From positions 96,001 to 160,000 of the forward strand of contig JBHJGN010000031.1 of assembly GCA_050331735.1 (NCBI GenBank): a stretch of DNA of 64,000 bases, written 5' to 3'. Position 1 is the stretch's first letter, and each line of letters opens with the position of its first letter. A model generated the notes under the pieces. It made no database searches. It was not told the origin of the DNA and saw only the letters and a program-made list of their open reading frames with translations. Shown in pieces: positions 8,148 through 37,647 of this stretch. The DNA comes from Cyanophyceae cyanobacterium. GTDB lineage: Bacteria > Cyanobacteriota > Cyanobacteriia > Cyanobacteriales > JBHJGN01. A program made the translations under genes and the position numbers.

Positions 8148-8162
8148 GCTTTAGTCACTGCT

Positions 8163-13829: not shown

Positions 13830-13835
13830 GCGCTG

Positions 13836-13949: not shown

Positions 13950-14065
13950 AATAACCTCAAAGTTAATGCAGATTTTCTGCCGTAGAAGCGTTAGTTTCTT
14001 GGCCAAGATGGGAACGATAAAAATGTAGCTGGTTCATAGTTGCTAGTGCCCTTGGACCATTGATA

Positions 14066-14785
14066 ATGATGAGATTTTTTTCTGTACGCCTAATCAGCAT
14101 AGCTGTTGTTCTGTTTCACCTTTCCCTACTAGGAGGAACGATGAGGCTGCCATCAGCACAGGCTCAATCTAACCCTCCTCTAAACTTTGACCCGACTGCC
14201 CCAACTCCTGCGCCAACTCCAACAACTTCCAATAACCAGGACTTCTTCTGCGGTCAGGGATGGGAATTTAATGGCTTTCCCTATGACTTGTTTGCCTGGG
14301 AGGAGATTCCTTGGGGTATGCCGGGAGATGAGTTTTTAAGAAGATACAAACAGCGAGTAGAGGAGTGTTCGTCAACAGTTTTTAGTGGTGAGCGAGGAAT
14401 AAATGCTACCCATTCATTTGAGAATAAGAGTCAGAAAGATCATACAACTGTATATTTTAGATTTCATGGAGAAAACAATACTCTTTCCGAAATTTATCTA
14501 AATCGTGTTCCCAGTTACATGAGAGATTATCTCTTGCAGCATTATGGAGTGCCTGCTCAAGCCAACTACACGCCAGTCAAAGTTCGTGTTGGTTGTGTTC
14601 GTGAAGGGATTGTCTGTCCTCCTGTCTTTGAATACCGAGGAGAGGAACTCTGGAGTGGAATCTGGCGGCTGTCAGAGACCTTCATTCAGTTAGGCACGCC
14701 CAATAGCATAACTATTAAACCCGTTGACTCTGACCTACAAAGTCGTCCTGTGTGCGATGAGTTTCTGATCTTCAAATTTTGTTAG
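14066..14785 (+). CDS. Secreted hypothetical protein within the T4SS cluster
   Basis: Signal peptide ending AQA, P/T-rich linker, IPWGM motif, six Cys. Confidence 0.7.
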   Translation: MMRFFSVRLISIAVVLFHLSLLGGTMRLPSAQAQSNPPLNFDPTAPTPAPTPTTSNNQDFFCGQGWEFNGFPYDLFAWEEIPWGMPGDEFLRRYKQRVEECSSTVFSGERGINATHSFENKSQKDHTTVYFRFHGENNTLSEIYLNRVPSYMRDYLLQHYGVPAQANYTPVKVRVGCVREGIVCPPVFEYRGEELWSGIWRLSETFIQLGTPNSITIKPVDSDLQSRPVCDEFLIFKFC

Positions 14786-14787
14786 CC

Positions 14788-16035
14788 ATGCTTCCAGGAG
14801 TAGTAAAGTTTACTCATTTATCATTCTGGCTGCTGGTGCAAGCTGGAGATACTTGTGATGGCGCTGGTAATTTTGACCTAGATCTCTCGGATCAGTTTGC
14901 TGAGGATGTCACGGTAGCAGAAAAAGTCAAGGAGAGTTTTGATGGACTGTGGGATGTGGCGCTATCTCCTACCAGTTTTGTTTATAGTTCTCTCTCTGAT
15001 ATTGGTCTACTGTTAGCAGTAGTTACCGTTACTGTGTTTATAGTACGTTGGGGGCGGGAGTTATTAGAGTCTGGAATTTCCAGTAAATCGTTTGGAGAAA
15101 TTATTTGGCCCTTAGTTGTAGCAGTTTTCTTAAGTAACAATGGACAAATTCTCGCTAGCACGACTCGCGCTATGCAGAACTACGTTCAAGAGCAGGAGGA
15201 AACAATTGTCAACGGAGCGTTTCTGGATGTGTTTATTGGAGAAACTCTTGAATCGGCTTTTCGGCAGTTAGTTGGTATCACGACAGTTCCTTTGGGCATT
15301 GGCTCGATTTTAGCTCAGTGTACTAGTCACGAAAATCCAGCGTTTTGCTTATCAGGACCACCAGTATATGAAGGAGAGGAAATTGAGAGATTTGAGTCTG
15401 GGGCGCTTCAACAGGCAATTTGTGCTTTGAATCCTTATGTAGAATCAGGAGAAAATCCTAAATTAGCTCAGCTCAGCAAAGAACTCGAAAAAGAACAAGA
15501 GAAGTTACATTCAATCCTTAAAAACGAAGTGCCAGGTTCTTCTGATGAAGAAGATACTTTCACTGTAGGCATTCCGCCTGAAATATACAAACTTATGTCT
15601 GCGAGTGAGGATTCTGGGTTGATGCAGTTCTTTATGGGGTCTGGAGCCGCATTTGTGTGGTTGACTGAACTCGCACTATTTATTACTGCCCTACTTGGAC
15701 CTCTCGCTCTTGGCTTGAGCCTGCTGCCTGTTGGCGGAAAAGCAGTCTTCGCTTGGCTGACAGGCTTCCTCTCTGTTGCTTTTGCAAAGCTGTTTTATTT
15801 CATTTTGACGGGGCTATCTTCGATTGTGGTGCTCGATGCTATTCAGGATGTGTCCCTAACAGACTTTGTGGACTCGATTCTGGTGGGAATCTTTGTCGGA
15901 GCACTGGCACCGCTGCTTTCCTTGGCAGTGTGCGTGAGCGGCGGTCGAGCGGTATTTCAAAGTTTAGTCGGCTACGTAGTTCCGGCGGTTGATTCGACGG
16001 TGCGGCGGCGGCAGATTTATCGAGCAGGAAAGTAA
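14788..16035 (+). CDS. VirB6/TrbL-like polytopic membrane protein
   Basis: N-terminal TMs with IIWPLVVAVFLSNNG, a Cys-containing loop, and C-terminal TMs ELALFITALLGPLALGLSLLP..K...AWLTGF. Confidence 0.8.
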   Translation: MLPGVVKFTHLSFWLLVQAGDTCDGAGNFDLDLSDQFAEDVTVAEKVKESFDGLWDVALSPTSFVYSSLSDIGLLLAVVTVTVFIVRWGRELLESGISSKSFGEIIWPLVVAVFLSNNGQILASTTRAMQNYVQEQEETIVNGAFLDVFIGETLESAFRQLVGITTVPLGIGSILAQCTSHENPAFCLSGPPVYEGEEIERFESGALQQAICALNPYVESGENPKLAQLSKELEKEQEKLHSILKNEVPGSSDEEDTFTVGIPPEIYKLMSASEDSGLMQFFMGSGAAFVWLTELALFITALLGPLALGLSLLPVGGKAVFAWLTGFLSVAFAKLFYFILTGLSSIVVLDAIQDVSLTDFVDSILVGIFVGALAPLLSLAVCVSGGRAVFQSLVGYVVPAVDSTVRRRQIYRAGK

Positions 16036-16068
16036 ACAGATAAGCATTTTTGTAAGGGATTGAGGGCT

Positions 16069-16818
16069 GTGGTGCAGATACTTCCAGAGAAAAAATCGAG
16101 AAACTACCTAGCGCTGTTTGTGCTGCTTACCGTGATTATGCAGGGGGCGAGTGTGCTGCTGCTGCTCTTTCAGGGGGCAATTATCAATCGCCTGAGCAAA
16201 AACCCGCCCACTCTGGTACAGCTTGTGGATGGAGAATCGATTCGCGTCGAGCCGATGGATTACCTAGAGCGTACGCCCCAAACAATCCGCGAGTTTGTTG
16301 AAGATACCATGACCATGCTAATGACCTGGTCGGGGGAACTTCCGGTCGAGTCGGCGCAGGATGAAAAGGTGCCGAGGCGCGACCCAGGAGTGACGATAGC
16401 GACGGAATCGGGTCGCTCTCAAAGGATTGCCACCTCTACCTGGCAAGCAGGATTTGCTCTTTCTGAAGACTTTCGGGTTGAGTTTTTGCAGGAACTGACT
16501 CGCCTCACTCCTCAGCGAATCTTTAGCAGAAATCAGGATACGCAGGTTGTTTTGGTGATACTCGATTTGTCTGAACCGAAGAAGATTGAAGAGGGTAAAT
16601 GGAAGCTGGCAATGGTCGCTAACTTACTGTTTTTTAGGGACGGTAGTTCCCTCGGAGAGGGAGTCCCGTTTAACAAAGAAGTTTATGTGCATACTGTCGT
16701 TGCGCCAGAAGTGCCTGATGATGCGACTCCTCTAGCTCGGAAAATTTATCAGGTGCGACAAGCTGGCTTGGAAATCTACGCCATGCGTGATTTAGAGGCG
16801 GAGGAAATTTTGGAGTAG
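16069..16818 (+). CDS. VirB8-like T4SS protein
   Basis: One TM, then PPTLVQLVDG, R.PQTIREFV..TM..LMTWSG, FALSEDFR.EFL and FNKEVYV; follows virB6. Confidence 0.75.
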   Translation: MVQILPEKKSRNYLALFVLLTVIMQGASVLLLLFQGAIINRLSKNPPTLVQLVDGESIRVEPMDYLERTPQTIREFVEDTMTMLMTWSGELPVESAQDEKVPRRDPGVTIATESGRSQRIATSTWQAGFALSEDFRVEFLQELTRLTPQRIFSRNQDTQVVLVILDLSEPKKIEEGKWKLAMVANLLFFRDGSSLGEGVPFNKEVYVHTVVAPEVPDDATPLARKIYQVRQAGLEIYAMRDLEAEEILE

Positions 16819-19808: not shown

Positions 19809-21023
19809 ATGATTCATCAGCCACCAGCCGGTGCGAGAGATTTACTGCCCCTAGAAGTTGTTCAAAAGAGCTGGATTAACGATCGCCTCCAGCAGGTGTT
19901 TGCTCAGTGGGGATACCAGCGCATCGTCACGTCTACCTTAGAGTGGCTTGATACCCTGATGGCAGGAGGAGCGATCGAGCGCTCAACAGTAGTTCAGCTT
20001 CAAGATAATTCGGAGGGAACTTTAGGGCTGCGTCCAGAATTAACCGCTTCTATTGCGCGAGCAGCGGTGACGCGCATGGAAGCAAAAACCTACCCTCAGC
20101 GCCTCTGTTACCGCGCTAACGTATTTCGTCAACCCCCCGCCGGACATCACGGGCGGCAGATGGAATTTTATCAAGCTGGCGTAGAGCTGCTGTTTGCCGG
20201 GGGAGTGGTGGCAGATGCCGAAGTGTTGCTGCTGTTGGTGGACTGTTTGCATCAGCTTGGCTTGCAGCAGTGGCAGTTACTGTTAGGAGAAGTGGGCTTA
20301 ACGCGATCGCTGCTTTCCCCGTTTCCAGAGCCGTTGAAGCAGGAAATCCGACACTGCTTAGCTCATCTCGACCGCGTTGCCCTAGAAAACCTGGAACTGA
20401 CTTCAGAGCAGCAGGAGCGGGCGCTGTTGCTGTTTGACCTACGGGGACGACCAGAGGACGTGCTTCAGCAGGTGGCTCAGCTCGAACTTGACGAGACGGG
20501 ACAGCAAATTGTCCAAAACTTGAAAACGTTAGTCGAGTTACTCAACAGCAGTCGCCCCGAACCGCTGCCGCTGATTCTAGATTTGAGCCTACTGCAAACC
20601 TTTGATTACTACACAGGCATTGTGTTTGACGTCGTAAGCCGAGGCGATCGCTCTTCCCGTATCGTCGGGCAGGGAGGACGCTACGACAGGCTTTTAGGGC
20701 TGTATCATCCGCACAAGCAAGATTCTCCCGGCATTGGCTTTTCGTTCTATTTGGAAGATCTGTATACCTGTCTACTGGCTAGCAACGCGCTACCGACAGA
20801 AGCTCCTATGAGCCATTGGCTGGTGATTCCTGACTCTTCGCAAGCGGACGCGGCAGCTTTCGCCTATGCTCAAACCTTGAGAGCCGAGGGAGTCGTGCGA
20901 GTCGAGATGGAATTGAAGAGGCGATCGCCGGAGCAGATTCGAGAGTATGCGCGCCAGCGCCGCATTAAGTACTTGGCTTGGGTAAAGGGTGACGGGATTC
21001 CGAAAATTGAAGCAGTCAGCTAG
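19809..21023 (+). CDS. hisZ: ATP phosphoribosyltransferase regulatory subunit
   Basis: HQPPAGARDLLP, LRPELTASIAR, EFYQAGVEL, YYTGIVF and GGRYD. Confidence 0.95.
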   Translation: MIHQPPAGARDLLPLEVVQKSWINDRLQQVFAQWGYQRIVTSTLEWLDTLMAGGAIERSTVVQLQDNSEGTLGLRPELTASIARAAVTRMEAKTYPQRLCYRANVFRQPPAGHHGRQMEFYQAGVELLFAGGVVADAEVLLLLVDCLHQLGLQQWQLLLGEVGLTRSLLSPFPEPLKQEIRHCLAHLDRVALENLELTSEQQERALLLFDLRGRPEDVLQQVAQLELDETGQQIVQNLKTLVELLNSSRPEPLPLILDLSLLQTFDYYTGIVFDVVSRGDRSSRIVGQGGRYDRLLGLYHPHKQDSPGIGFSFYLEDLYTCLLASNALPTEAPMSHWLVIPDSSQADAAAFAYAQTLRAEGVVRVEMELKRRSPEQIREYARQRRIKYLAWVKGDGIPKIEAVS

Positions 21024-21080
21024 CGCCGTAGGCCCGGGAAAAAAGTTCCTACGGAACGGGGAAAAGGGGAAGGAGAAAAA
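21021..21080 (+). repeat. Dispersed repeat family A, short copy starting at the hisZ TAG
   Basis: TAGCGCCGTAGGCCCGGGAA...ACGGGGAAAAGGGGAAGG. Confidence 0.65.
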
Positions 21081-21081
21081 T

Positions 21082-21666
21082 ATGACGACTGTTACAATTC
21101 CCAAAGGATTTATAGTGACGCCGGGACAGTTTGATGAACTTGCTGATGCCAATACCGGCATTCGCCTGGAGTTAACCGCTCAAGGAGTATTGCTAGTTAT
21201 GTCGCCAACAGGGGGAACAGCAGGAAGAAGAAATTTTCGCCTTTGTCAGCAATTGGCCAATTGGGCAGAGCGAGATGAAACCGGAGTTGGCTTTGACTCA
21301 TCAACCATTTTTGTTCTGCCTAACGGCGCAAGACGTTCCCCCGATGCTGCCTGGATTCAGTTGAAACGCTGGAATACTCTCACTCAAGAAGAGCAAGACG
21401 GCTTTCCTCCGATTGCTCCTGATTTTGTGATTGAGTTAGTCAGTCCGAGCGATTTAGCAAACCAGCGCTATGAAGACTTACAGCAGAAAATGCCGGAATA
21501 TCTGGACAATGGAGTGCGCCTCGGTTGGCTCATCGAGCCGAAGACACAAACTGTTGAGATTTACCGTATGGGGCAGCCTGTTGAAGCTTTACAGAATCCG
21601 AAATCTCTTAGTGGTGAGGTGGTTTTGCCGGGATTGCTCCTCGATTTGGAGCCGATTTGGGGTTAA
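21082..21666 (+). CDS. Uma2-family endonuclease-like protein
   Basis: RLELTAQG.L.VMSPTG, FDSST.F.LPNGA.RSPDAAW, PDFVIELVSPSD and EYLDNGVRLGWLI. Confidence 0.92.
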   Translation: MTTVTIPKGFIVTPGQFDELADANTGIRLELTAQGVLLVMSPTGGTAGRRNFRLCQQLANWAERDETGVGFDSSTIFVLPNGARRSPDAAWIQLKRWNTLTQEEQDGFPPIAPDFVIELVSPSDLANQRYEDLQQKMPEYLDNGVRLGWLIEPKTQTVEIYRMGQPVEALQNPKSLSGEVVLPGLLLDLEPIWG

Positions 21667-21681
21667 ATCAGAGCTAGTGAG

Positions 21682-21801
21682 AAACTTAATGAGTTGGAAA
21701 AAGGGAAGGGGGAAAGGTCAGCACAGCAAGTTTTTCCCTTTGCACCCCCAACTCTTGGTTTGTTTGGAGAACTATCTAACTACTTTCGGTCAATGGTATT
21801 A
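21682..21801 (+). mobile_element. MITE-like element family B, left end degenerate
   Basis: Body and right end (GAACTATCTAACTACTTTCGGTCAATGGTATTA) are shared with 25430-25574 and 49550-49682. Confidence 0.7.
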
Positions 21802-22069
21802 GCCCTTGCGATCAACAACTAGTGACTGTTGACTCAATACGAGCCTAATCTATTTTTGGTCAGTCAGCAGTAATACTGAGGGCAATTGTGTTGGGAATTG
21901 TCAAACTAGGCTTATTCCACTGTCAAATCATCTTTAGTCTTTCTGCTTCTGAAACATTAAAAGCAAGCAGGAAAAATTAGGGACAGCTCATTTTATGGGT
22001 GGAAGTTTTAGCAATCTGCAATAAATATAAACGCTTAATATTTAAAATTGCGAAATTGAGGCGGTAGAG

Positions 22070-25000
22070 ATGAAAACAGACTTATCTTCCCTGAAACCTT
22101 CTAACCCTGTTGCCACCCTCGTTTTTATCGATGCTGGAGTTAAAAATTATCAACAGTTAGTTGATGGTGTTATTCCTAAAGCGGAAGTATTTGTCTTAGA
22201 TGCAGCGGCTGATGGTGTTGAGCAAATTAGCCATGTTTTACAGCAGCGGCAGAATGTCGGAGCTGTTCATATCGTTTCTCACGGTGCGCCAGGTGGCTTG
22301 TACTTGGGTAACACCCGATTAAGTCTTGATACTTTCAGGCACTATGCCACTCAGCTACAGAAGTGGAAGGTAGTCAATCTCTTTCTCTACGGCTGTAACG
22401 TGGCTGCTGGGGACGCAGGTGAAGAGTTTATCGAGAAGCTGCACCAGCAGACAGGAGCAAGTATAGCAGCGTCGCGTCGAGTAATCGGTGACGGGTACTG
22501 GTTCCTAGATGTTAACCCTACAGGGACGACAGCACAGACCCCATTTGATGAAGCAGTTCTAGAAAGCTGGACAGGACGACTAGCGCTAAACATCAGCAAT
22601 CTCAGTAACTCATCGTATACTGAGCAAGACCCCGCTATTATCCTAGACAGTGATATCAGCTTCTCAGGTGGGACAAACTACAGCAGCGGCTATCTTGAGT
22701 TTAGTTTAAGCACCGCTACTGCGTCTGATTTTTTAAGTTTAGTTGCTGATGACAACATTTCTACCGCTAACAACCAGATTTCTATTGTTGCTAATACAGT
22801 TTATCTCGGCGATGGCAGCGAGGCAGCAGTAGTCGGTACCGTAGATTCAACATTCGACGGTCAGAATGGAAAAAATCTACGGATTAACTTATCCACTAGT
22901 TTTCCAAACGGTAATTTCAACATTGGCTCGCCTGAAGACACAACCATCACGAGTTGGACAACGGTAAACCAGCAGGTCAAATTTGGAAACGATACAATTG
23001 CTAACTTAACTACGCCCACCGACAGCACCATTCCCTCAGACTCTAATGGGGACCAAAACACTCCTTCTAGCCCAGGGACGATGACGACAGTCCTTGATGC
23101 TACACAGAACGACGGAGGCGGAAATTCTCTTCGGCTCGCCTCTACAGGAATTACTACTGCCGAAGGATATGATATCGTTCGCGGTCCATACGTTTACAGT
23201 GATACGGCTATATCCTTGTCATCTGGCGACCAGGTGTCCTTTGAATGGCAAGCTCAAGGGGGGGGAGATGCCTATGATATTTATGGCTACATTGTTGATA
23301 TTAACAACAATCACATCGAAACTATTCTAGATGAAACAGGCAGTAGTGAATCTGCTGCTACTACTTGGGCAACGGAGACAATTACTGTTTCCCAAGCTGG
23401 TGAGTACAAATTTGTCTTTGTTGCCGGTACTTACGACTATTCTGGCGGTAAAGCTGCAGGAGCACAGCTCTACATTGACGATGTAACAGTTACTCAATCG
23501 GTCCCGTCCGCAGTTTTCGACGATACTCATGTATCTGCGCTCGCTCAGAGAGTGCAGTACAACAATACCTCAGATAGTCCTGAAACCTCAAAAACTCTCA
23601 CTGTCTCCGTTCAAAACAGCGCTGATGAGATAGTAAGCGATACGGCAACCATTGATATTACGTTAGTAAACGATGCCCCCACTGCGCTTAGCCTCAGCAG
23701 CACCAGTATTAATGAGAACAGTGCGGCGGGAAGTGCAATCGGTACTTTCAGCAGCACTGACCCTGACGCGAGCGAGACCTTCACCTATACTCTAGTGGCT
23801 GGCACTGGAGATACGGATAACAGTGCCTTTACCATTGACAGCGACCAGCTTAAAATCATCGACTCCCCCGACTACGAAGCTAAGGATAGCTATAGCATTC
23901 ACGTCCGCACCACAGATAGTGAGAACGAAATCTATGAAGAAGCGTTTACTATCAATGTCAACGATTTTAATAAAACACCCACTGCTATTGCTCTTGATAA
24001 CAACCGGGTTAACGAGAATCAAAATAGCCGCACTCTCGTCGGTACTCTTTCTACCATTGATGCCGATGACGGCGACACTCATATTTACCAGCTCGTGGGT
24101 GGGGAGGAAGATACAGATAACAGTGCCTTTACCATCGATGGTAATCAACTGAAAACTAACACTCGGCTTAACTACGAAGCTAAATCCAGCTACAGCATTC
24201 GTATCCAAACCACAGATAGCGAGAGCGAAACCTACGAAAAAACCTTTACTATCAGCGTCAACAATCTCAACGAAATCCCCAGACTCAGTTTAATCAACAC
24301 TAATACCTCCTTAGCTGAAGACATCGATACCAGCACTAGGATTAAGGTAGCAGACATCCGCATCTATGATGATGGTTTAGGAGCAGAAACCATTGCCCTG
24401 AGCGGCCCTAATGCCGACCTCTTCGAGCTGGATGGGAGAAAACTCTTTCTCAAAGCCGATACTCCTCTCAACCATGAAACCGAAGCTGAGTTAAACGTGC
24501 AGGTCTCGGTCAACGACTCCACCATCGGCTCCACACCAGACGATACTGAATCCTTGGCAATCGCCATCAGCGATGTCAATGAAGCCCCCAGCCTCAGCTT
24601 CACTAACTCTACCGCTTCATTAGCCGAAGACACCGACACCAGCACTAGGATTAAGGTAGCTGATATTGTCATTAGTGATGATGCCCTCGGCAACAACACC
24701 TTAAGCCTCAGCGGGGAAGATGCTGAGAGCTTTGAAATTGACGACAGCGCTCTGTTCCTCAAAGCCAATACCCCCCTCGACTTTGAAACCCATCCTGAGC
24801 TATCGGTCTCGCTTAGCATCGATGATGCTACCTTGGGAGATGGAGCGGAAGCAACAGAATCCTACACCCTGAATCTGATTGATATGCCAGATGACGGCCT
24901 TGAAGGGGATATTAGCTTATTCTGGTCTAACCGCGCCACCGGAGAGAACCAGCTCTGGCTCTTCACGGGACTCCAGAGGCAGTCTGTGGTATTGCCCCTT

Positions 25001-25330
25001 ACCGATACAGATTGGCAACTGCGAGACGTCGGAGACTTTAACGGAGATGACCAGTACGACCTGCTCTGGCGACACTCGGCTACCGGAGAAAACGCTGTTT
25101 GGCTGATGAACGGCACTGACTTTATTCAAAGAAGTAGTTTGCGCTCTGCTTCCAACCTCGATTGGTCCCTGGTGGGCGCGGCAGACTTCAACGGAGATGA
25201 CAAAGACGACCTACTCTGGCGACACGCGGCTACCGGGAAAAATGCTGTCTGGCTGATGGACGGCACGACTTTTATGAGCAGCAGTTCTCTGCCAGAATTC
25301 TCTGGGGCTGACTGGTCTGCGGTTGTTTAA
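22070..25330 (+). CDS. Large surface/adhesin protein: DUF4347, beta-sandwich domain, four cadherin-like repeats and FG-GAP/VCBS repeats
   Basis: DUF4347 motifs LVFIDAGV, HIVSHGAPG.LYLG and LYGCNVAAG; cadherin motifs VNDAPT, DYEAK.SYSI and DVNEAP; C-terminal GDFNGD..DLLWRH repeats. Confidence 0.88.
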   Translation: MKTDLSSLKPSNPVATLVFIDAGVKNYQQLVDGVIPKAEVFVLDAAADGVEQISHVLQQRQNVGAVHIVSHGAPGGLYLGNTRLSLDTFRHYATQLQKWKVVNLFLYGCNVAAGDAGEEFIEKLHQQTGASIAASRRVIGDGYWFLDVNPTGTTAQTPFDEAVLESWTGRLALNISNLSNSSYTEQDPAIILDSDISFSGGTNYSSGYLEFSLSTATASDFLSLVADDNISTANNQISIVANTVYLGDGSEAAVVGTVDSTFDGQNGKNLRINLSTSFPNGNFNIGSPEDTTITSWTTVNQQVKFGNDTIANLTTPTDSTIPSDSNGDQNTPSSPGTMTTVLDATQNDGGGNSLRLASTGITTAEGYDIVRGPYVYSDTAISLSSGDQVSFEWQAQGGGDAYDIYGYIVDINNNHIETILDETGSSESAATTWATETITVSQAGEYKFVFVAGTYDYSGGKAAGAQLYIDDVTVTQSVPSAVFDDTHVSALAQRVQYNNTSDSPETSKTLTVSVQNSADEIVSDTATIDITLVNDAPTALSLSSTSINENSAAGSAIGTFSSTDPDASETFTYTLVAGTGDTDNSAFTIDSDQLKIIDSPDYEAKDSYSIHVRTTDSENEIYEEAFTINVNDFNKTPTAIALDNNRVNENQNSRTLVGTLSTIDADDGDTHIYQLVGGEEDTDNSAFTIDGNQLKTNTRLNYEAKSSYSIRIQTTDSESETYEKTFTISVNNLNEIPRLSLINTNTSLAEDIDTSTRIKVADIRIYDDGLGAETIALSGPNADLFELDGRKLFLKADTPLNHETEAELNVQVSVNDSTIGSTPDDTESLAIAISDVNEAPSLSFTNSTASLAEDTDTSTRIKVADIVISDDALGNNTLSLSGEDAESFEIDDSALFLKANTPLDFETHPELSVSLSIDDATLGDGAEATESYTLNLIDMPDDGLEGDISLFWSNRATGENQLWLFTGLQRQSVVLPLTDTDWQLRDVGDFNGDDQYDLLWRHSATGENAVWLMNGTDFIQRSSLRSASNLDWSLVGAADFNGDDKDDLLWRHAATGKNAVWLMDGTTFMSSSSLPEFSGADWSAVV

Positions 25331-25429
25331 TCGGCTCCATCACGGAGCACCCATTGAATAGCGAGAAGAGGGAATTTTCCCTTTCCCCCAATCTATAAAT
25401 GAGTGCATCCACAACCAGGAACCGTCGTC

Positions 25430-25574
25430 TTATGCCAATTAGAAAAAGTCATCGGAGATGGGGGAAAGGGTCAGGGGGAAAGAGGAAAGGTAAGCACCGC
25501 AGCTCTTTCTCCTTGAACTTCCAATGCTTGGTTAGTTCGGGGAACTATCTGACTACTTTCGGTCAATGGTATTA
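25430..25574 (+). mobile_element. MITE-like element family B
   Basis: Imperfect terminal inverted repeats TTATGCCAATT...AATGGTATTA; its terminal TTA is the dapE stop codon on the minus strand. Confidence 0.72.
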
Positions 25575-26759
25575 GCTAAAAGAATCAAAAAACTTTTCAA
25601 TGATTCTTTCATAAACACAGCAAAGCTCATACACATGAGCAATAGGAATATGCTCCCCCACCTGATGCATCGTATTATCCAACGGGCCATATTCAACCGT
25701 AACGCAGTGGGGCACAAGAAAACGGGCATCGGTAATTCCGCCATCGGTACTGAGACGGGGGCGACGGCCAGAAACCTCTGCCACCGCATCCTGCACAAGG
25801 CTGACAAAAGGATCTTCAGGATTCGTCCGAAATGCTTCCCCACTGACGCGGAAGCGAACATCGTACTCAACGCCATAGGACCGAGCAAGGGGTTCAATCG
25901 TGTCCCGAATGAGCTGTTGTAACCCATTCCCCGTTTGCTCGTCGTTAAAGCGGATGTTGAAGCGCAGATTAACGGCGGCAGGAATGACGTTTTCCGCACA
26001 GGGAGCTGTTTCAAACTTAGTAAATTCTAGATTAGACGGTTCAAACCACTCATTACCCTCGTCGAGAGGTAAATTTTGCAGCGCTGCTGCCATTGCCACC
26101 GCCGCCGGAACTGGATTGAGCACATTGCGCTGGTAGGCGACGTGTCCCTGCTTGCCTTTGATGGTAATAAAGGTATTGATGCTGCCGCGACGACCAATAT
26201 GAACGCAGTCGCCCATCTCTAGCGGGTTCGTCGGTTCACCCACTACGCAGGCATCAATCTTCTCGCCTCGCTGCTGTAGCCATTCCATCACGGGTTTCGT
26301 GCCGTTAATCGCTTCGTGCTCCTCGTCGCCCGTGATAATGAAGCTGAAAGACCCCTGGAAATCCTTCCTCTTCGCAAGCCACGCCGATACAGCAGCAATA
26401 AAGCAGCCAATTCCGGCTTTCATATCCACCGTGCCCCGTCCCCAGAGAATGCCGTCGCGGATTTCAGCCTTGTAGGGGTCGATATCACCCCAGCGCAGGC
26501 GATCGCCTTCTGGCACCACATCGGTATGTCCGGCAAAGGCGAGGTTTGGTTCGGCTGTTCCCAATCGGGCATAGAGATTATCCACTTCGTAGCTGCCGGG
26601 TTCGTTGTAAAATTTGAGGCGCTGGCAGGTAAAGCCGAGTAATTCCAGATGACGCTGCACCACATCCAACCCCCCGTGTCGATCCGGCGTGACGCTCGGT
26701 CTGCGGATCAGTTCTTGGGTTAACTTAACAGGATCGAAAACAGGAACATTGACAAGCAT
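25572..26759 (-). CDS. dapE: Succinyl-diaminopimelate desuccinylase (M20)
   Basis: NLYARLG, FAGHTDVVP, GRGTVDMK, TGDEE, VGEPT, GRRGS, QGHVAY and TMHQVGE; RBS GAGGAG. Confidence 0.92.
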   Translation of the reverse strand: MLVNVPVFDPVKLTQELIRRPSVTPDRHGGLDVVQRHLELLGFTCQRLKFYNEPGSYEVDNLYARLGTAEPNLAFAGHTDVVPEGDRLRWGDIDPYKAEIRDGILWGRGTVDMKAGIGCFIAAVSAWLAKRKDFQGSFSFIITGDEEHEAINGTKPVMEWLQQRGEKIDACVVGEPTNPLEMGDCVHIGRRGSINTFITIKGKQGHVAYQRNVLNPVPAAVAMAAALQNLPLDEGNEWFEPSNLEFTKFETAPCAENVIPAAVNLRFNIRFNDEQTGNGLQQLIRDTIEPLARSYGVEYDVRFRVSGEAFRTNPEDPFVSLVQDAVAEVSGRRPRLSTDGGITDARFLVPHCVTVEYGPLDNTMHQVGEHIPIAHVYELCCVYERIIEKFFDSFS

Positions 26760-26774
26760 GGCATCTCCTCAGAT

Positions 26775-27677
26775 TTAGACTGTAGACGGAGCAGTAGTTT
26801 GCTCAGTTACAAATTGCTTGTAAGCATCAATTAAACGAGTGGTGACAGGACCGAAAGGTTCAAAACGATACTCGTCAATCTCACTTACCGACTCAATCTC
26901 GCAGGTAGTCCCAGTGAGAAAGACTTCCTGCGCTTGGGCGAGTTCTTCTAGCTTGATGTGGCGTTCAATAACAGAAATCTCTAATTTCTCCGCCAATTTC
27001 ATAATAGTTTGCCGGGTAATGCCATTCAAAAAGCAATCCGGTATCGGCGTTAGCAAACTCCCATCGCGTACCAGAAATACGTTGGATGTGGTCGATTCAG
27101 CAATCAGCCCTCGATAGTCTAACATGAGAGCATCATCAAAGCCTTGTTGGACGGCTTCATCTTTGCTCATGGTGCAGATGGGGTAGAGACAAGCTGCCTT
27201 GCTCACCGTTGGTGCGGTCGTCGGATCGGGCTTGCGCCAGGGTACGTGGCGAGTCAGCTTCAGTGGCTTCTTGGTGTCAATATCAAATAGCGTCGTCGGG
27301 AATGACCAGGCAGCAATGCCAACGCAGATTGAGGTATCGGGGGCATATACCCGCAATCTTTCACTGCCGCGCCAAGCAAAATGGCGGATGTAGCCCACTT
27401 TAATATTTTCTCGCTCCAGCAGATTATTAGTGGCTTCGACAAGAGCATCCAGCGCATAGGAAATGGTAAAACCAAGAATTTCAGCCGATTGATACAGGCG
27501 CTCCAGATGTTCAGCTAACAAAAACGGCTTGCCGTTATAGATGCGCACTCCTTCAAATACACTACTAGCGTAATGCAGTCCGTGGGTGAGCGGGTGAATC
27601 GTGGCTTCTTTCCAAACAACTATGTTGCCATTCAGCCACAAAAACCCTTCCTTTTGATCGAACGGAAACAGAGACAT
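26775..27677 (-). CDS. ilvE: Fold-type IV PLP aminotransferase (branched-chain aminotransferase-like)
   Basis: THGLHYASSVFEGVR.Y, GYIR, PLP lysine in KAACLY, ESTTSNVF, LNGITRQT and EVFLTGT. Confidence 0.85.
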   Translation of the reverse strand: MSLFPFDQKEGFLWLNGNIVVWKEATIHPLTHGLHYASSVFEGVRIYNGKPFLLAEHLERLYQSAEILGFTISYALDALVEATNNLLERENIKVGYIRHFAWRGSERLRVYAPDTSICVGIAAWSFPTTLFDIDTKKPLKLTRHVPWRKPDPTTAPTVSKAACLYPICTMSKDEAVQQGFDDALMLDYRGLIAESTTSNVFLVRDGSLLTPIPDCFLNGITRQTIMKLAEKLEISVIERHIKLEELAQAQEVFLTGTTCEIESVSEIDEYRFEPFGPVTTRLIDAYKQFVTEQTTAPSTV

Positions 27678-27750
27678 AGAGAATCTTCTTTGGAGTGAAT
27701 TGTTCGACGTGATCGCTATTAATAAACAGAGGGAACAGGAGTTTGCGTCG

Positions 27751-27890
27751 AACGGGGAAATTGTCCGGTGCGGGACGGGTAAGGGTTAAAGAACACAGAG
27801 TTAAGAAAACTAATTTATTCACCCTTTCCCCCTTCCCCTTTCCCCTTTCCCCGTCGCGGAGCGACTTCTTTCCCTGCGCCTGCGGCGCTA
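27751..27890 (-). repeat. Dispersed repeat family A, starting at the dapD stop
   Basis: The minus strand reads TAGCGCCGCAGGCGCAGGGAA, then GGGGAAA heptamers and the conserved core. Confidence 0.75.
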
Positions 27891-28742
27891 ATTCCGCAAC
27901 AGTTCGTTAATCGATGTTTTAGAACGGGTTTTGTCATCAACCGTTTTGACAATCACGTTGCAGTACAGGCTTGGACCCGGTGAGCCATCGGGAAGCGGTT
28001 TGCCGGGTAGGGTGCCGGGAACAACAACTGCATAGGGAGGAATTTCCCCGTAGAAAATCTTGCCAGTGGTGCGATCGACGATTTTAGTAGACTGACTGAG
28101 ATGAACGCCGATCCCCAAAACGGCTCCTTCGCGGACAATCACACCCTCAGCCACTTCGCTTTGACCGCCAACAAACACATTATCTTCGATAATTACTGGA
28201 TTGGCCTGAAGCGGTTCGAGAACGCCACCAATGACGACTCCAGAGGACAAATGGCATCCTTGGCCGATTTGGGCGCAGGAACCGACAGTGACGTAGCTAT
28301 CCACCATCGTTCCGGTATCAATATAGGCCCCGATGTTGACAAAGCTAGGCATTAGCACAACATCTCTCGCGACATAGGAACCGCGACGGACGACGCAATT
28401 GGGAACGGCTCGAAATCCAGCGCGAGTAAAGTCATCCTGAGTCCAGCCGGAAAACTTGGACGGCACTTTATCAAACCAGGGCGCTTCTTTGAGAGCCTGA
28501 GATTGCAGACCACTGGCGATGACGGCAGATTGATTCAAACGGAAAGACAGCAGCACAGCCTTTTTAAGCCACTGATTTACTACCCAGTCATTCCCGGATT
28601 TTTCAGCAACACGATATTGACCGCTATCTAATCCTGCTATGGCGTGTTCGACAGCCTCGCGTATTTCCCCTGACGTTTCTGCGTTAACGCTACTGCGGTT
28701 TTCCCAAGCCGTATCGATCGTTGTTGTCTGTGTTGTGTCCAT
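27888..28742 (-). CDS. dapD: Tetrahydrodipicolinate N-succinyltransferase (proteobacterial type)
   Basis: [61 protein letters not shown] and [12 protein letters not shown] 28742 is the likely start. Confidence 0.95.
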
Positions 28743-28837
28743 CTCGTCTTTACTTAAATCCACTACTGCTAATCTGAGAGTCAATTCTTCAAATGGTATC
28801 GCTAACGGGGAAAGGGGGGAAGGGGAGCGATCGCCGA

Positions 28838-30916
28838 TTACTGCTTCAGCGGTTGACCGTTGCTCCGTAACAGCTCTAACCCAGCGGCTACTACCGTTTC
28901 TGGCGCTATGTCTAAACACTCTAAACTGTAGGGACAGGTAAAGGCATAGCAGGGACTACAGACAGTCGGACGACGCAATAACTTTACGTCTGTTGCTCTC
29001 GGTTGCCACTGACACTCTAATTCAGTTCCGGCAAACAGAATCACGGCAGGGGTGCGTGTGGCATCGGCAATGTGCATGGTGGAGGTGTTATTAGTCAGCA
29101 CCAGACGCGCCTGAGCAATCAAAGCTGTGAGTTCGCTTAAAGTCGTTTTCCCAATTGAGTCAACGGCGCGATCGCCCAAAAATTCTAGCAGAGGACGAGA
29201 GCGATCGCGGTCTTTGGCTACGCCGGTGACGACCACTGGCCACCCTGTCTGTTCACTGAGTTGCCGTGCCGCTTCCGCAAAGCGCATCCCCTCATAGTTG
29301 CGAGACTGGCAGCTTGTCCAGGGGTTGAGCAAGATGTAGGAACCCGATACGCCGTTAGAGGTGGGGACATGCAGAGAGAGGTGGCGATCGCAAACCCTAA
29401 ACCCGACAGACTCGATCAGGCGAAGGTTGCGCTCAACTTGATGGGTGCAATCGGGGGCTGATGCCACCTCATGAGTGAGAATTCCCAAACCCCGCTCCTT
29501 TGATTCTCCTAGGCGAAGAGGAATTCCGGCCAGATAACAAATTAAGGCAGGCGGATGAGGACTCTGACTGAAGCTAGTGAAGATAATTGCCGCATCAAAT
29601 TGACGAGCAGCTAATGTATCAATCAGTTGCCATTCTCGTTCCGGGTCAAAATCTAATCGTCCTAAGTCTTGCCAGAGAACGCGCCAGGGCAGCACCTCAT
29701 CTACCCAAGGTAGGAGAGAAGCCGTGAGCGCACCGCCGGGACTCGCCATTAACGTTAGCTGAGCGTGAGGCAAATTTTCTTGAATCGCCCGCAAAGCTGG
29801 ACTAGTCATAATCACATCTCCAATGTTGTCCAGCCGCATCACCAGGATGTTACGAGCACTAGACCACTCTGAGAGCAACGATTGAGGAGGAAACTCTCTC
29901 TGACTCTCTACCCCCTGACGACTAACCACTAATCCCGTCCCTCTCAACACCCTCTCCGCCTCAGCCACGACTGCTTGAGGAGACACCGCTTCGGTGCAGG
30001 TCTCCCACTCAAAGGGACAAACCCCACTGTACCAGCAGGACTGTTGCGTAAAATTGCTAATGATGCGTTCCGGACATTCGGGATATCCCTGCAAATTAAT
30101 GTGAGGGGTGGGGTGCCCGTAGCGTTCGTGCCAGGAGGGACCAAACAGAGTAATCGTCGGTACATCAAGGGCGACGGCAATTCTCACCGGTCCTGTATCA
30201 GCGCCAATCACTAAATCGGCGTTGGCCATCGCTGCCGCTAGCTTTCGCAGGGTTCCTCGCGGCCAGACGTAGGCATCACCTCCAATGGCAGAGGCAATCG
30301 CTTGGGCTTGTTTATCTTCGCTTTCCACCACAAAGATGGTGCCGCCCTGCTGCTGAAGTGCTTTGCCGAGGGCAACAAACTTATCTGGGGACCAGCGCTT
30401 AATTGACATTCCGGCATCGGGAATGAGGAAAATGAGGGGACGGTATGCTGCTCCCAAAGCTTGTTCTGCCTGCGCCTTTTCTGTCCGAGAGAGTTCGATC
30501 AGCGGATGTTGGTTTTGAACACTATCGGGGGTAATTAACCCCTCTTCAAGCAGAATTTGGAGAAAGCGATCACCCACTCGCTGGTGCGCAGGAGGATTAC
30601 GCCAGAGATTGGTAACGGTTCTCTTGGCTGCCTTTGCAACAACGTCAGCAATGCCTTCGTAGTTGGTATCAGAAACAATTAAATCAAACCCTTGCTGAAC
30701 CAGTTCCTCAACGGCTTGACGAGCTTGGCCTTTTTGAGCAACGACAATTTGAGCGATTAGACTATTTTTCTGCAATAAGTCCGCAGCGGGGGAGAAAGTC
30801 AGCACCGTGAGGCGAGCTTGAGGATGACTGAGGGCCAAGGCTTTGATAGCAGGAAGGGCAATGAGTCCGTCTCCAATTCCGCCCAATAACTCTATAAATA
30901 GAATCTTCTGGATCAA
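28838..30916 (-). CDS. Glycosyltransferase family 9 (heptosyltransferase-like), two fused GT9 units
   Basis: Unit 1: ELLGGIGD...[20 protein letters not shown]. Unit 2: [11 protein letters not shown]...[19 protein letters not shown]. Each unit ends in a Cys cluster. Confidence 0.88.
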
Positions 30917-30919
30917 GCT

Positions 30920-31201
30920 TTAATTCCGACTGACTAACTTACAGAAACGACTTTCTTCACCGCTTTTCAGCTTCTCTTGATAGAGAAAAGCGAGTTTGCT
31001 CTCTTCAAATTTTTCAAAGAACTCTTCCCATTCAATTCTCTCCAAGGAGTCTTGCCCACTGTAGCCCGGAAAATCGATGCGCAGCAGCCCCGGTCCATTT
31101 TCTTTGGTCCTTTTTACCGTTGCGGGGTAACCGCCTCGCTCTTCAACCCAGCGCTTGATCTCGTCGCGATCTGTCGTTTTTTTAGATTCTGCTTCAGACA
31201 T
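30920..31201 (-). CDS. Conserved small acidic stress-associated protein
   Basis: TTDRDEIKRWVEERGGYPATV..GLLRIDFPG..I.WEEFFEKFE...LAFLYQ; its stop is 3 nt from the GT9 start, implying an operon. Confidence 0.8.
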   Translation of the reverse strand: MSEAESKKTTDRDEIKRWVEERGGYPATVKRTKENGPGLLRIDFPGYSGQDSLERIEWEEFFEKFEESKLAFLYQEKLKSGEESRFCKLVSRN

Positions 31202-31616
31202 AAATAATTTCTCAACGCTGCTATCGAAGAGCATATATCGCTGAAGATAACAGTTCCCAATTGAGCGCTGCTTCTGCCTTTAGAATGAAGATAGCCTTCC
31301 TCCTATTTAGCTAAGCTTCAAGTCCACCATTCTGTTTGGAACTGTGTGCTATCGCTGAGCACACCTAGCTTTTCTTCCCGCTCATAAAAGCCCATTCTCA
31401 GCAACAACTGCGCTTAGCTAGTTCTTGATTATGCTCTTGGCTCTTTAGATTTCACTCCGCTGATAGAGACAAAATCTAGTGTTTTACTTTTAGATAAAGT
31501 ATAAGACTAAACAGACATACATGCATAAATATGCATTTCAACCGCCGTTGAGCTGAACTAGTTTCGGTTGCTGTCTTAGCGAGAGTTAGCTTTTAGAACA
31601 AAGGAATACGATTACT

Positions 31617-32459
31617 ATGGTTAAAAGTCACAACAATAGTTTGACAAAACAAACAGCAGTCCGTATGGGAGCGATCGCCCTTGGGATGGCGGCCCTCCTG
31701 CTTCCTGGCTGCAACAACCCCCAAGAAATTGCGGAAGAAGAAACAAACGTCACAACTGAAGACGTTGCCGAAGATCCAGTAGAAGCTGATGATGCCAACG
31801 CTAGCGGATTGGTGACGGTTCGGGGCGAAGTGTCGCAAGAACTTGATGAGCAAGGCTTTGAGCTTCAGTCTGAGGGCGAATCAATTTTAGTCATCAATGC
31901 CTCTGGAACACCTTTAACTCTCCCCACAGATGACGTGCCAGTGCAGGTAACAGGAGACTCGGTACAGTTTGTGACTGCCGACGTTGAGAGCGAGTACGGT
32001 TTGGAGTTAGATCCAGAGCTATACGTCGATTATGAAGAACAGCCTGCGATTATTGCCGAGTCGATTGCGCTTGCGCCCACGGCTGAACAGCTTGCAGAAG
32101 ATCCATCACCCTACTATGACCAGGTTATTGCTCTCCAAGGAGAAGCCAGACGAGTTTACTCTCCCAGTGCGCTATCTGTGTTTGAAGACGGCTGGGTGGA
32201 TGATGTCGGCTTAATGGTTGTCGGAGTCGATCAGGTTCTTCAAACTGAAGGAGAAGGCGGTGAAGTTCAGCAAGGAGAGATGGTCGTCGTGACTGGTAGA
32301 GTAGAGCCATTCGATCTCGCTCAGCTTGAGCAGGAGTACGAGCTTGGTTTAGAACCCGATGTCGTAGAAGAGTTTGAAGCAAGCTACACTGAAGAACCCT
32401 TCCCAAATCGACCCGTGATCGTTGCTGATGATATTTATCCGTCAGCGGTAGAAGAATAG
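31617..32459 (+). CDS. Acidic lipoprotein with two internal repeats (OB-fold-like)
   Basis: Lipobox LPGC; duplicated motif V.VTG....F....E.EY.L.L.P. Confidence 0.8.
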   Translation: MVKSHNNSLTKQTAVRMGAIALGMAALLLPGCNNPQEIAEEETNVTTEDVAEDPVEADDANASGLVTVRGEVSQELDEQGFELQSEGESILVINASGTPLTLPTDDVPVQVTGDSVQFVTADVESEYGLELDPELYVDYEEQPAIIAESIALAPTAEQLAEDPSPYYDQVIALQGEARRVYSPSALSVFEDGWVDDVGLMVVGVDQVLQTEGEGGEVQQGEMVVVTGRVEPFDLAQLEQEYELGLEPDVVEEFEASYTEEPFPNRPVIVADDIYPSAVEE

Positions 32460-32667
32460 AGAGCTTTGTGTACCTTTAGGCGGGAATAGCGCTAATCAGC
32501 GCCATTTTCCGCTGTTTTGCCCGTATAAATATTAGCTAATTGCCTAATTTAACCAATTAGATAGATGTAGTGTTATCCCTTCAGAGAGATGAGATCTGCC
32601 CGTTGTCTAAGAGAAAAAAGAGGTGATTGATTACTAAGCACACGTAACACTTTACTAAGGAAAAAAA

Positions 32668-37480: not shown

Positions 37481-37647
37481 TGGGGAAAAGGGGAAATAGT
37501 TGCTCCGCAACGGGGAAGGGGGAAAGGGATAACTATCCAGTGCGGGACGTCAAAAGAACATAGGGCTAAGAAACAAACTAGTTCATTCCCCTTTCCCCCT
37601 TACCCTTTCCCCTTTACCCGTGCCTACGGCACCTGCCCTCTTCCCTG
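37481..37647 (-). repeat. Dispersed repeat family A overlapping the 3' end of the YyaL-like gene
   Basis: Conserved core plus heptamer tracts on both sides; encodes the tail GAVGTGKGERVRGKGE and the TGA stop. Confidence 0.75.

Follow-up and report, generated by a model that had tools for sequence, protein, structure and literature searches.

A gene triad for a probable succinylase route to diaminopimelate, with a fold-type IV aminotransferase as candidate for the DapC step, in cyanobacteria without detected DapL

Here we describe a gene triad, dapD–AT4–dapE, in a 64,000-nucleotide stretch of cyanobacterial DNA (the window), which is very probably a succinylase branch of diaminopimelate (DAP) synthesis that its host gained by lateral transfer and that has replaced the DapL route there. 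The middle gene, AT4, encodes a fold-type IV aminotransferase of the branched-chain aminotransferase (BCAT) family. From its sequence and genomic setting, we propose that AT4 is a re-tooled BCAT that carries out the DapC step, a candidate role that is plausible and, on balance, slightly favoured.

As a preliminary description of the window had stated, dapD, the class-IV aminotransferase gene and dapE are intact and co-oriented, forming three minus-strand open reading frames, of which AT4 and dapE are separated by a short gap (Table 1). The peptide strings quoted in that description, as well as GGITDARF, were found in the translations. The dapD frame stays open up to a GTG at 28919 (27888–28919), and the protein that starts at the ATG is close in length to its orthologues (about 285 aa). 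An Rfam search of positions 25000–29500 revealed no lysine riboswitch and gave a single chance-level match, to mir-150 (E 0.38). A scan for promoters and terminators yielded one promoter-like and six terminator-like sites, not exceeding the level of shuffled sequence (3.5 and 4.3 expected, respectively), and gave no operon boundaries; we infer that the triad is expressed as an operon.

Table 1 Features of the triad locus, with positions in the window.
Feature	Position	Strand	Remark
dapD upstream region, 95 nt	28743–28837	minus	HIP1 at 28827, host repeat copy at 28807
dapD, tetrahydrodipicolinate N-succinyltransferase	27888–28742	minus	284 aa from ATG at 28742
dapD–AT4 spacer, 210 nt	27678–27887	minus	purine-rich host repeat at 27822–27852
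AT4, fold-type IV (BCAT-family) aminotransferase, 300 aa	26775–27677	minus	candidate N-succinyl-LL-diaminopimelate aminotransferase
AT4–dapE spacer, 15 nt	26760–26774	minus	GAGGAG before dapE ATG
dapE, N-succinyl-LL-diaminopimelate desuccinylase, 395 aa	25572–26759	minus	loop V = GGITDARF

The genome that bears this triad is a draft of 99 contigs (5.57 Mb, 99.98% complete) with 4851 HIP1 sites, or 0.87 per kb, in cyanobacterial style. The triad could in principle be an assembly chimera or a proteobacterial contaminant binned with a cyanobacterium, as the draft is fragmented and contigs of run X1 end at repeats on either side of AT4–dapE; at the one in the dapD–AT4 spacer, depth reaches 294. 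We consider this highly improbable, however, because the triad sits in the middle of a 175,746-base contig, one HIP1 site lies within dapE (26499) and another just upstream of dapD, and the spacers carry a host repeat whose 10-mer, CCCTTTCCCC, and its complement occur in 821 copies genome-wide. In addition, read depth is even (46–50) over the triad and its flanks, and one X1 contig (27852–29023) links dapD with the 3′ end of the adjoining glycosyltransferase gene; the assembly may have been built from X1, which is therefore not independent evidence. Moreover, the same arrangement is present in 16 other cyanobacterial assemblies, whose source names include isolate genomes with 7–8 Mb contigs. 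Thus, the triad lies in genuine cyanobacterial DNA and is conserved elsewhere, in line with the preliminary description.

Both outer genes encode bona fide members of their families. DapD scored above the equivalog cut-off of TIGR00965 (383.5 versus 375.4 bits) and the cut-off of NF008808 (352.2 versus 204 bits), and comprises a THDPS_N_2 domain (PF14805, 91.2 bits) followed by the hexapeptide repeats of a left-handed beta-helix (PF00132, PF14602). Its best solved relative, DapD 3eg4, aligned end to end (E 6.7e-116). The acetyl-type model TIGR03532 reached only 94.6 bits against a cut-off of 231.75, a low score that favours succinyl-CoA over acetyl-CoA as the probable donor. DapE exceeded the cut-offs of PRK13009 (443.2 versus 284 bits) and TIGR01246 (389 versus 361.8 bits), contains the M20 catalytic (PF01546) and dimerisation (PF07687) domains and has solved DapE relatives at E values down to 2e-83. 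In the alignment with one of these, 8f8o, the stretches HTD, DMK, DEE, GEP and MHQ are identical, and we take the metal ligands and catalytic residues (His, Asp, Glu-Glu, Glu and His) to lie in them.

All three genes are of foreign origin. The preliminary description had noted their proteobacterial look, and their nearest relatives outside the cyanobacteria indeed all lie in Alphaproteobacteria. DapD shares 78–87% identity with its cyanobacterial orthologues and 66–72% with alphaproteobacterial-labelled ones, DapE shares 48–54% with alphaproteobacterial relatives, and AT4 shares 52–58% with alphaproteobacterial-type IlvE (Rhodospirillales, R. rubrum-labelled proteins). Scaled to distances within the alphaproteobacterial set, the patristic distance that separates this set from the cyanobacterial clade is 1.84 for AT4, 1.10 for dapD and 1.27 for dapE. 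The 80 AT4 homologues nearest outside the cyanobacteria (46–55% identity) lie on metagenome contigs, 27 of them with full 5-kb flanks on both sides and 51 with 1.2 kb or more on each side. Neither dapD nor dapE was found in this flanking DNA, and therefore the dapD–AT4 linkage is without donor-side support. A divergent dapD (42–48% identity) occurs in 24 other genomes of the phylum (families f52, f57 and f58), and AT4 adjoins it at none of 25 loci.

Acquisition of the triad goes together with loss of DapL. No DapL was detected in the host genome: the best of seven matches to TIGR03542 reached 140.5 bits against a cut-off of 364.7, and the best match to TIGR03540 stayed below its cut-off (504.3 versus 593.25 bits). 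The host retains dapF, a divergent sucC/sucD-like pair, ArgD (TIGR00707, 531.9 bits) and two class-I paralogues related to the DapL2/DapC families, one matching PRK05942 (815.9 bits) and the other, C29, matching PRK07366, a model named LL-diaminopimelate aminotransferase (715.8 bits, cut-off 486). Among 40 relatives of the host's own order, dapD is absent from all and DapL is present in 34; cyanobacterial-type DapL paralogues are present in all 40 relatives listed. The pattern is also visible in the order of a second carrier, G044, in which 15 of 121 genomes have dapD, 103 of the remaining 106 have DapL, three have neither and none has both. Altogether, DapL was found in none of 18 dapD-bearing cyanobacterial genomes (the host, 0 of 5 and 0 of 12), the kin among which are not independent events. 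The pathway was therefore replaced rather than added to.

The same data bear on a reading in which the triad, instead of making LL-DAP, acts in the synthesis or breakdown of a related N-acyl diamino- or amino-oxo-dicarboxylate, with DAP supplied after the loss of DapL by a DapL-like class-I paralogue of the PRK07366 family. Paralogue C29, which clears the cut-off of that model, is compatible with this reading, as are clade-fixed substrate-facing changes in AT4 and DapE. In DapE, the replacement of GGTSDARF by GGITDARF in loop V, pointed out in the preliminary description, proved to be real and clade-specific: all 10 cyanobacterial clusters read GGITDARF or GGITDARY, and 107 of the 109 clusters of alphaproteobacterial type read GGTSDARF. 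The change puts Ile in place of the loop V threonine, at the position of H. influenzae T325, and Thr in place of the adjoining Ser; T325 lies over the metal site, and T325A and T325S lower kcat 25–50 fold and T325C is inactive (PMC4012986). Nevertheless, DapD and DapE both exceed equivalog cut-offs, and the mutual exclusion of dapD and DapL is predicted by route replacement, not by an unrelated add-on pathway. Furthermore, PRK07366- and PRK05942-type paralogues (rows of roughly 120 and 140 bits) co-occur with true DapL in relatives and are therefore not DapL substitutes there. We thus regard a different product as improbable.

The chief rival to AT4 for the DapC step is ArgD. In this alternative, the succinylase branch replaced DapL all the same, and transamination falls to a resident fold-type I enzyme, either ArgD or a DapL2/DapC-like class-I paralogue, both of which the host encodes; AT4 would then have come along with dapD as a further aminotransferase, acting on branched-chain or a broad range of substrates, and been retained for another reason. 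ArgD is the accepted DapC stand-in of E. coli and has been proposed for the step in Azospirillum and Phaeobacter (Alphaproteobacteria) (PMC5764234), and review passages on N-succinyl-DAP aminotransferase activity name ArgD alone (PMC9309667). The genomic behaviour of AT4, however, is not that expected of a passenger. In all 17 genomes in which both genes were found (14 of G044's order, the host, G041 and G042), AT4 is the next gene downstream of dapD, despite changing flanks and a moving dapE, which in G043 and G045 is found elsewhere in the genome with dapD and AT4 still adjoining. Likewise, in G044's order, AT4-clade genes are present in 14 of 15 dapD-positive and in none of 106 dapD-negative genomes; in the remaining dapD-positive genome, dapD lies 311 nt from a contig end. 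A search of genome contigs with AT4 returned five cyanobacterial loci. AT4 is also under purifying selection: between the host and locus L027, dN/dS is 0.057, compared with 0.038 for dapD and 0.048 for dapE, at saturated dS. In one of the 17 AT4 copies, that of G497, the codon that aligns with E260 is an in-frame TAG stop, which speaks for the ArgD alternative. Flanking synteny gave no sign of a mobile element: the flanks of the triad differ among the host, L027 and L028, and it has no further gene that moves with it.

The complement of branched-chain aminotransferases can be read both ways. The preliminary description had asked about a separate ilvE, and the host does have a native one (PRK06606, 356.7 bits versus a cut-off of 279), as do four of five other genomes checked, so AT4 is not required as the sole BCAT; its retention in five of the six genomes checked also speaks against the ArgD alternative. 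By contrast, no ilvE-type gene besides AT4 was found in G042, and AT4 may therefore still use branched-chain substrates.

To place AT4, we compared it with known families and structures. Its Pfam result (matches at E up to 0.001) is PF01063 (Aminotran_4) alone, at 173.8 bits, with no match to the fold-type I domains PF00155, PF00202 and PF00266; AT4 therefore falls outside all known DapC families and would be a functional analogue at most. Its best family match, PRK07544, stays under the cut-off (372.7 versus 396 bits), as does PRK06606 (266.5 versus 279 bits), and TIGR01122 is barely exceeded (247.2 versus 245.55 bits), the last score being in keeping with a branched-chain role. Solved BCATs match it at E 5.6e-50 to 4.5e-47. 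A D-amino-acid transaminase acting as a DapF bypass was rejected, because the respective models gave 132–135 bits versus 373 for BCAT and dapF is present. All BCAT catalytic residues are retained, with K159, E193, Y164, R59, R40, Y95, R97, Y31 and F36 (E. coli numbering) and also I220, T221 and T257 among the PLP-binding and catalytic positions, as the ArgD alternative would equally allow.

The differences are enriched in active-site elements. Relative to 70 alphaproteobacterial-type IlvE proteins, AT4 has 26 clade-fixed differences, nine within 46 active-site-element positions and 17 within 240 others (Fisher p = 0.012), a modest enrichment (p = 0.04 when limited to conserved columns) for which the elements were taken from the E. 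coli BCAT lists in Table 2 of PMC8320979, not from an AT4 structure. The canonical specificity elements, as listed for E. coli BCAT, are the beta-turn GTAA, the interdomain-loop residues W126 and Y129 and an uncharged O-pocket loop (PMC8320979). AT4 departs from this set throughout, its clade-fixed changes including GTAA to GTTC in the beta-turn, W126F and Y129T between the domains, and M107L, A108R, S110Y and Q112P in the O-pocket loop, which here carries charge (R109). R107 is present in 74% and K136 in 98% of clade members. Of 50 cyanobacterial clusters, 41 carry in full a 13-residue signature that lies mostly in substrate-pocket loops, and each of the 50 has at least 10 of these residues. 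Outside the clade, no more than two of the 13 residues were found in the 70 closest alphaproteobacterial-type relatives and no more than four in the best 150 representatives of a library of 1.84 billion proteins. Placement of the signature follows the published E. coli elements. The fixation of 13 residues in pocket elements, unseen in other sampled relatives, would be surprising in a passenger. Linkage to dapD, co-occurrence with it, the low dN/dS and the signature around the pocket together favour AT4 as the enzyme of the DapC step; transamination by ArgD or a class-I paralogue is the less probable alternative.

These observations allow us to propose how the branch may operate in its carriers, the present host and a group of marine cyanobacteria resembling Leptolyngbya, in which it would have displaced the one-step DapL route. 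Tetrahydrodipicolinate would be succinylated by DapD, with succinyl-CoA coming from the divergent SucCD-like pair. AT4 would then convert N-succinyl-2-amino-6-oxopimelate and glutamate into N-succinyl-LL-DAP, keeping the PLP and glutamate chemistry of BCATs in a side-chain pocket that may be wider and more positively charged. DapE would take off the succinyl group, and resident DapF would yield meso-DAP. It is about as likely as not that the triad amounts to more, namely a self-sufficient portable cassette that took the place of DapL in at least two cyanobacterial lineages and whose dedicated fold-type IV N-succinyl-LL-DAP aminotransferase, a new answer to the DapC step with no structural kinship to the known ones, arose from an alphaproteobacterial-type IlvE by re-shaping of the pocket.

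The triad shares with the proteobacterial succinylase branch (DapD, DapC/ArgD, DapE) the same DapD and DapE families, the same reaction logic and an embedded aminotransferase gene; its closest operon analogue is presumably the dapC–dapD–dapE locus of Bordetella pertussis. It differs in its oxygenic cyanobacterial host, in the loop V of DapE (GGITD, not GGTSD) and in the aminotransferase, which is fold-type I (classes I, III and V) in proteobacteria and fold-type IV (PF01063) here. All known N-succinyl-DAP aminotransferases, that is DapC (TIGR03537/03538/03539), ArgD and SerC, are fold-type I, and we know of no fold-type IV enzyme that uses N-succinyl-DAP intermediates. AT4 resembles alphaproteobacterial-type IlvE (PRK07544) in fold, length and PLP and catalytic residues, and is set apart from it by its sub-threshold score, its clade-fixed differences and its linkage to dapD. 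Like the triad, the DapL route of cyanobacteria, plants and Chlamydia starts from tetrahydrodipicolinate and ends in LL-DAP, which feeds DapF; it takes one step instead of three. A literature search, with most subscription journals outside its scope, found neither a succinylase route in oxygenic cyanobacteria nor a class-IV DapC.

DapL is viewed as a lineage-specific target for drugs or algicides and as the route by which cyanobacteria, plants and chlamydiae make DAP and lysine. By exchanging it for a proteobacterial route, a clade of oxygenic cyanobacteria offers a clear example from nature of non-orthologous pathway displacement. If the missing aminotransferase is AT4, the fold-type IV family, much used in biocatalysis, would gain an activity, and there would be a dedicated gene for a step that in many genomes is mostly left unassigned or given to moonlighting ArgD. 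Metabolic reconstructions of the carrier cyanobacteria would need correction.

The dapD-AT4-dapE cassette, in which AT4 is a 300-aa fold-type IV (BCAT-like) aminotransferase gene, represents the known succinylase branch. Both DapD and DapE fall within their families, with NCBIfam scores above the cut-offs of TIGR00965 for dapD (383.5 versus 375.4 bits) and of TIGR01246 (389 versus 361.8 bits) and PRK13009 (443.2 versus 284 bits) for dapE. AT4 belongs to the fold-type IV superfamily: the class-IV domain was its only Pfam match (173.8 bits), its top NCBIfam model, PRK07544 (alphaproteobacterial-type BCAT), reached 372.7 bits, under the cut-off of 396, TIGR01122 was barely exceeded (247.2 versus 245.55 bits) and D-amino-acid transaminase models scored about 133 bits. 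AT4 and dapE are separated by 15 nt, with GAGGAG ahead of the dapE ATG, and dapD and AT4 by 210 nt; orthologues of dapD are about 285 aa long, versus the longer GTG ORF that extends to 28919. Around the triad genes, an Rfam search found no family and a promoter/terminator scan gave no pattern above chance.

Features of the cassette and its surroundings (window positions)
Feature	Position	Strand	Remark
dapD	27888-28742	-	from ATG; intact ORF; longer GTG ORF up to 28919
AT4, aminotransferase, 300 aa	26775-27677	-	intact ORF
dapE	25572-26759	-	intact ORF
692-aa protein, two glycosyltransferase family 9 (heptosyltransferase-like) halves	28838-30916	-	directly upstream of dapD
1086-aa protein: N-terminal DUF4347, cadherin repeats, C-terminal FG-GAP-like repeats	22070-25330	+	convergent with dapE
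TraG/VirD4-type type IV coupling protein (TrwB_AAD_bind, T4SS-DNA_transf, TraG-D_C)	5287-7038	-
Eight co-oriented ORFs, 150-952 aa, after coupling protein	7548-16818	+	no Pfam match at E <= 1e-8
CCCTTTCCCC repeat, intergenic	27822-27852, 28807, 25379, 25461, 37519-37603, 63527-63548 and others		both orientations counted

The triad DNA is cyanobacterial and not a chimera, in line with the preliminary description, which had deemed an assembly chimera less likely. The window takes up the central part of a contig 175,746 bases long, from a genome (G000) with a completeness rating of 99.98%. That genome has 4851 HIP1 sites (0.87 per kb), 53 of them in the window, among these one at 26499 inside dapE and one at 28827 upstream of dapD, and a purine-rich/pyrimidine-rich short repeat, CCCTTTCCCC, together with its complement, has 821 copies in the 5.57-Mb genome, versus about 10 by chance, and is present in the spacers either side of dapD. 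Contigs of a sequencing run (X1), which is possibly the source of the assembly and not independent of it, span 21000–32500 at an even depth of 46–50 with breaks at repeats only, CCCTTTCCCC among them, and a single contig links dapD to the adjoining glycosyltransferase gene. The neighbouring genes (Uma2 nucleases, a pentapeptide-repeat protein, CobK and a HisS-like gene) are ordinary for cyanobacteria. The glycosyltransferase family 9 gene is not kept beside the triad in other genomes. At 25224–25607, between the cadherin-like gene and dapE, a summed contig depth of 1049, versus about 49 around it, indicates a highly repeated element, for which the sole Rfam match was at chance level. The coupling protein and the eight-ORF run, about 9 kb from the triad, may be the remnant of a conjugative or integrative element.

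DapL, the usual cyanobacterial one-step LL-DAP enzyme, was absent from G000 by its family model (best TIGR03542 match 140.5 bits versus a cut-off of 364.7). The two best class-I paralogues of G000 belong to families PRK05942 and PRK07366, types that accompany true DapL in relatives (matches of about 140 and 120 bits). Among 40 relatives from the same order, 34 carry DapL and none carries dapD; those without DapL are G002, G018, G023 (whose 302-bit match is truncated), G024, G026 and G029, and several are incomplete genomes. G024, with neither DapL above the cut-off nor dapD, is rated 99% complete, and the best DapL-model match in G018, G024 and G026 is a paralogue of about 190 bits. In five other cyanobacterial genomes bearing triad genes (G041–G045, loci L027–L031), dapD was present, dapE was found in 5/5 and DapL in 0/5 at E <= 1e-60. 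When 121 genomes were sampled evenly from the order of G044, 15 had dapD, all of them lacking DapL, and 106 had no dapD; of the latter, 103 have DapL and three (G502, G530 and G539) do not. DapL was found in none of the 18 dapD-bearing genomes, which are kin and not 18 independent events. Because 6/40 and 3/121 genomes lack both DapL and dapD, absence of DapL alone is not proof of replacement. Together, these data give good support to the view that a foreign succinylase cassette replaced DapL, which we consider highly probable. G000 also encodes dapF (321 bits versus a cut-off of 114.65) and an adjacent sucC/sucD-like pair (162 and 212 bits, under cut-offs), presumably a divergent cyanobacterial succinyl-CoA synthetase.

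The gene arrangement singled out in the preliminary description recurs elsewhere. In the order of G044, AT4-clade genes occur in 14 of the 15 dapD-positive and 0 of the 106 dapD-negative genomes, always on the same strand and directly downstream of dapD (spacers of about 17–430 nt between match ends); in the fifteenth, G485, 311 nt separate dapD from the end of its contig, which is 6854 bases long. With G000, G041 and G042 added, the dapD-AT4 linkage is 17/17. The dapE gene adjoins the pair in G000, G041, G042, G044 and G497 and is located elsewhere in G043 and G045 (loci L035 and L036), with a Cys/Met-metabolism PLP enzyme on one side and an aldo-keto reductase on the other; the cassette flanks are unrelated among G000, L027 and L028. 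The separate ilvE at issue in that description exists: in G000, a native cyanobacterial ilvE lies on a different contig from the triad (PRK06606, 356.7 versus 279 bits), G041, G043, G044 and G045 have a native copy as well, and the G042 search found AT4 only. Between G000 and L027, where dS is saturated, dN/dS was 0.057 (AT4), 0.038 (dapD) and 0.048 (dapE). The AT4 copy of G497 is interrupted by an in-frame TAG where E260 aligns, which may reflect either an error or genuine loss. A third, short class-IV-fold ORF of 199–234 aa lies outside the window (locus L010, G000:C31:167377-168081; Aminotran_4, 67.6 bits summed) and had no NCBIfam match at E <= 1e-40.

AT4 was aligned with E. coli IlvE (from L144), using the numbering of the solved structure. 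Residues K159, E193, Y164, R59, I220, T221, T257, F36, G38, R40, Y95, R97, Y31, H27 and H30 are kept, and the machinery for PLP, the alpha-carboxylate and glutamate/2-oxoglutarate is, as judged from this alignment, intact. Compared with 70 alphaproteobacterial-type IlvE relatives, 26 positions are fixed to another residue, by thresholds of 90% or more for 50 cyanobacterial clusters and 80% or more for the relatives. Nine of these fall among 46 aligned positions in the active-site elements that Table 2 of PMC8320979 lists for E. coli BCAT and 17 among 240 others, a modest enrichment (one-sided Fisher p = 0.012; 0.04 counting only columns conserved in the relatives). The nine are M107L, A108R, S110Y and Q112P in the O-pocket loop, W126F, Y129T and F130L in the interdomain loop, and A258T and A259C in the beta-turn that binds the alpha-carboxylate. 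P98H (next to R97), G162C, M165P, T262E and P263S are additional changes touching active-site elements; extra positive charge comes from R107, present in 74% of clade members, and K136, in 98%. The side-chain pocket for the other substrate would thereby have lost two bulky aromatics and gained arginine and lysine. A 13-residue signature is complete in 41/50 cyanobacterial clusters and matches at least 10/13 in all 50, versus at most 2/13 in the 70 relatives and at most 4/13 in the best 150 library representatives. The ratio of cyanobacterial-clade-to-alphaproteobacterial distance to within-set spread, a rough measure given that the comparison sets differ, was 1.84 for AT4, 1.10 for DapD and 1.27 for DapE.

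A widened, more positive pocket would fit a long side chain that has two carboxylates at its end, such as that of N-succinyl-2-amino-6-oxopimelate, and the L-amino acid output of a BCAT-type enzyme would match the requirement for an LL product. AT4 does not match canonical BCATs in their specificity elements and, since the known DapC families are all fold-type I, cannot belong to any of them. The nearest known operon analogue is reportedly the Bordetella dapC-dapD-dapE locus. In the literature within reach of our search, which took in few subscription journals, nothing described a DapC of class IV, or oxygenic cyanobacteria that use the succinylase route. The main rival, that ArgD or a class-I paralogue carries out the DapC step, is less likely. 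ArgD is present in G000 and appears in PMC5764234 and PMC9309667 as an established or proposed DapC stand-in, and the G497 stop codon, the lack of a second ilvE hit in G042, the modest enrichment statistic and the lack of a triad-bearing donor among 80 metagenome loci speak against AT4 in this role. That AT4 is the DapC-step enzyme is, on residue and linkage patterns, the best single explanation, and we lean slightly towards it.

The GGITDARF motif of DapE, remarked on earlier, is real and clade-specific: all 10 cyanobacterial clusters have GGITDAR[FY], versus GGTSDARF in 107/109 relatives. Its counterpart at the altered position in H. influenzae DapE is T325, in loop V over the metal site, where according to PMC4012986 T325A and T325S cut kcat 25–50 fold and T325C abolishes activity. 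The adjacent Thr that replaces Ser in the cyanobacterial enzymes may compensate, and the change leaves a small door open to an altered substrate.

All three triad genes look alphaproteobacterial in origin, because their next relatives carry alphaproteobacterial labels and each FastTree tree contains a single cyanobacterial clade (support 1.0); the proteobacterial look first noted for the proteins is thereby borne out. For AT4, about 50 cyanobacterial clusters at 72–83% are followed by relatives at 52–58% with Rhodospirillales and R. rubrum labels; for DapD, 38 clusters at 78–87% by alphaproteobacterial labels at 66–72%; and for DapE, 10 clusters at 78–88% by such labels at 48–54%. Clusters were assigned to cyanobacteria by source names where given, among them Leptolyngbya sp. 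PCC 7375, Leptothoe, Adonisia turfae and many marine MAGs. A donor with the same gene order was not found: within the sequence available, dapD or dapE lay beside 0 of the 80 nearest non-cyanobacterial AT4 homologues in metagenome loci, 27 of which offered the full 5 kb to either side, and among the 150 best representatives in a 1.84-billion-protein library identity to AT4 did not exceed 51%. A divergent dapD (258–303 bits, 42–48% identical to that of the window) occurs in 24 genomes of 2–7 Mb from phylum families f52, f57 and f58 (loci L039–L063), with an M20 gene beside it in some and AT4 in none.

Last, G041–G045 show, on two housekeeping proteins, that they are not close kin of G000, making G000 a separate case. 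Native IlvE of G000 is 64–72% identical to theirs (none found in G042) versus 73–83% to same-order relatives, and the HisS-like protein 53–57% versus 52–74%; the triad proteins are 77–88% identical between G000 and G041–G045. The 121 sampled genomes of the order of G044 include none listed for the order of G000, and in the AT4 tree G000 falls in a subclade with unnamed sequences and others that, where labelled, come from MAGs; the sister subclade is that of Leptothoe, Adonisia and PCC 7375. On the two markers, the simplest reading is that the cassette moved among cyanobacterial lineages and that each move was accompanied by loss of DapL.
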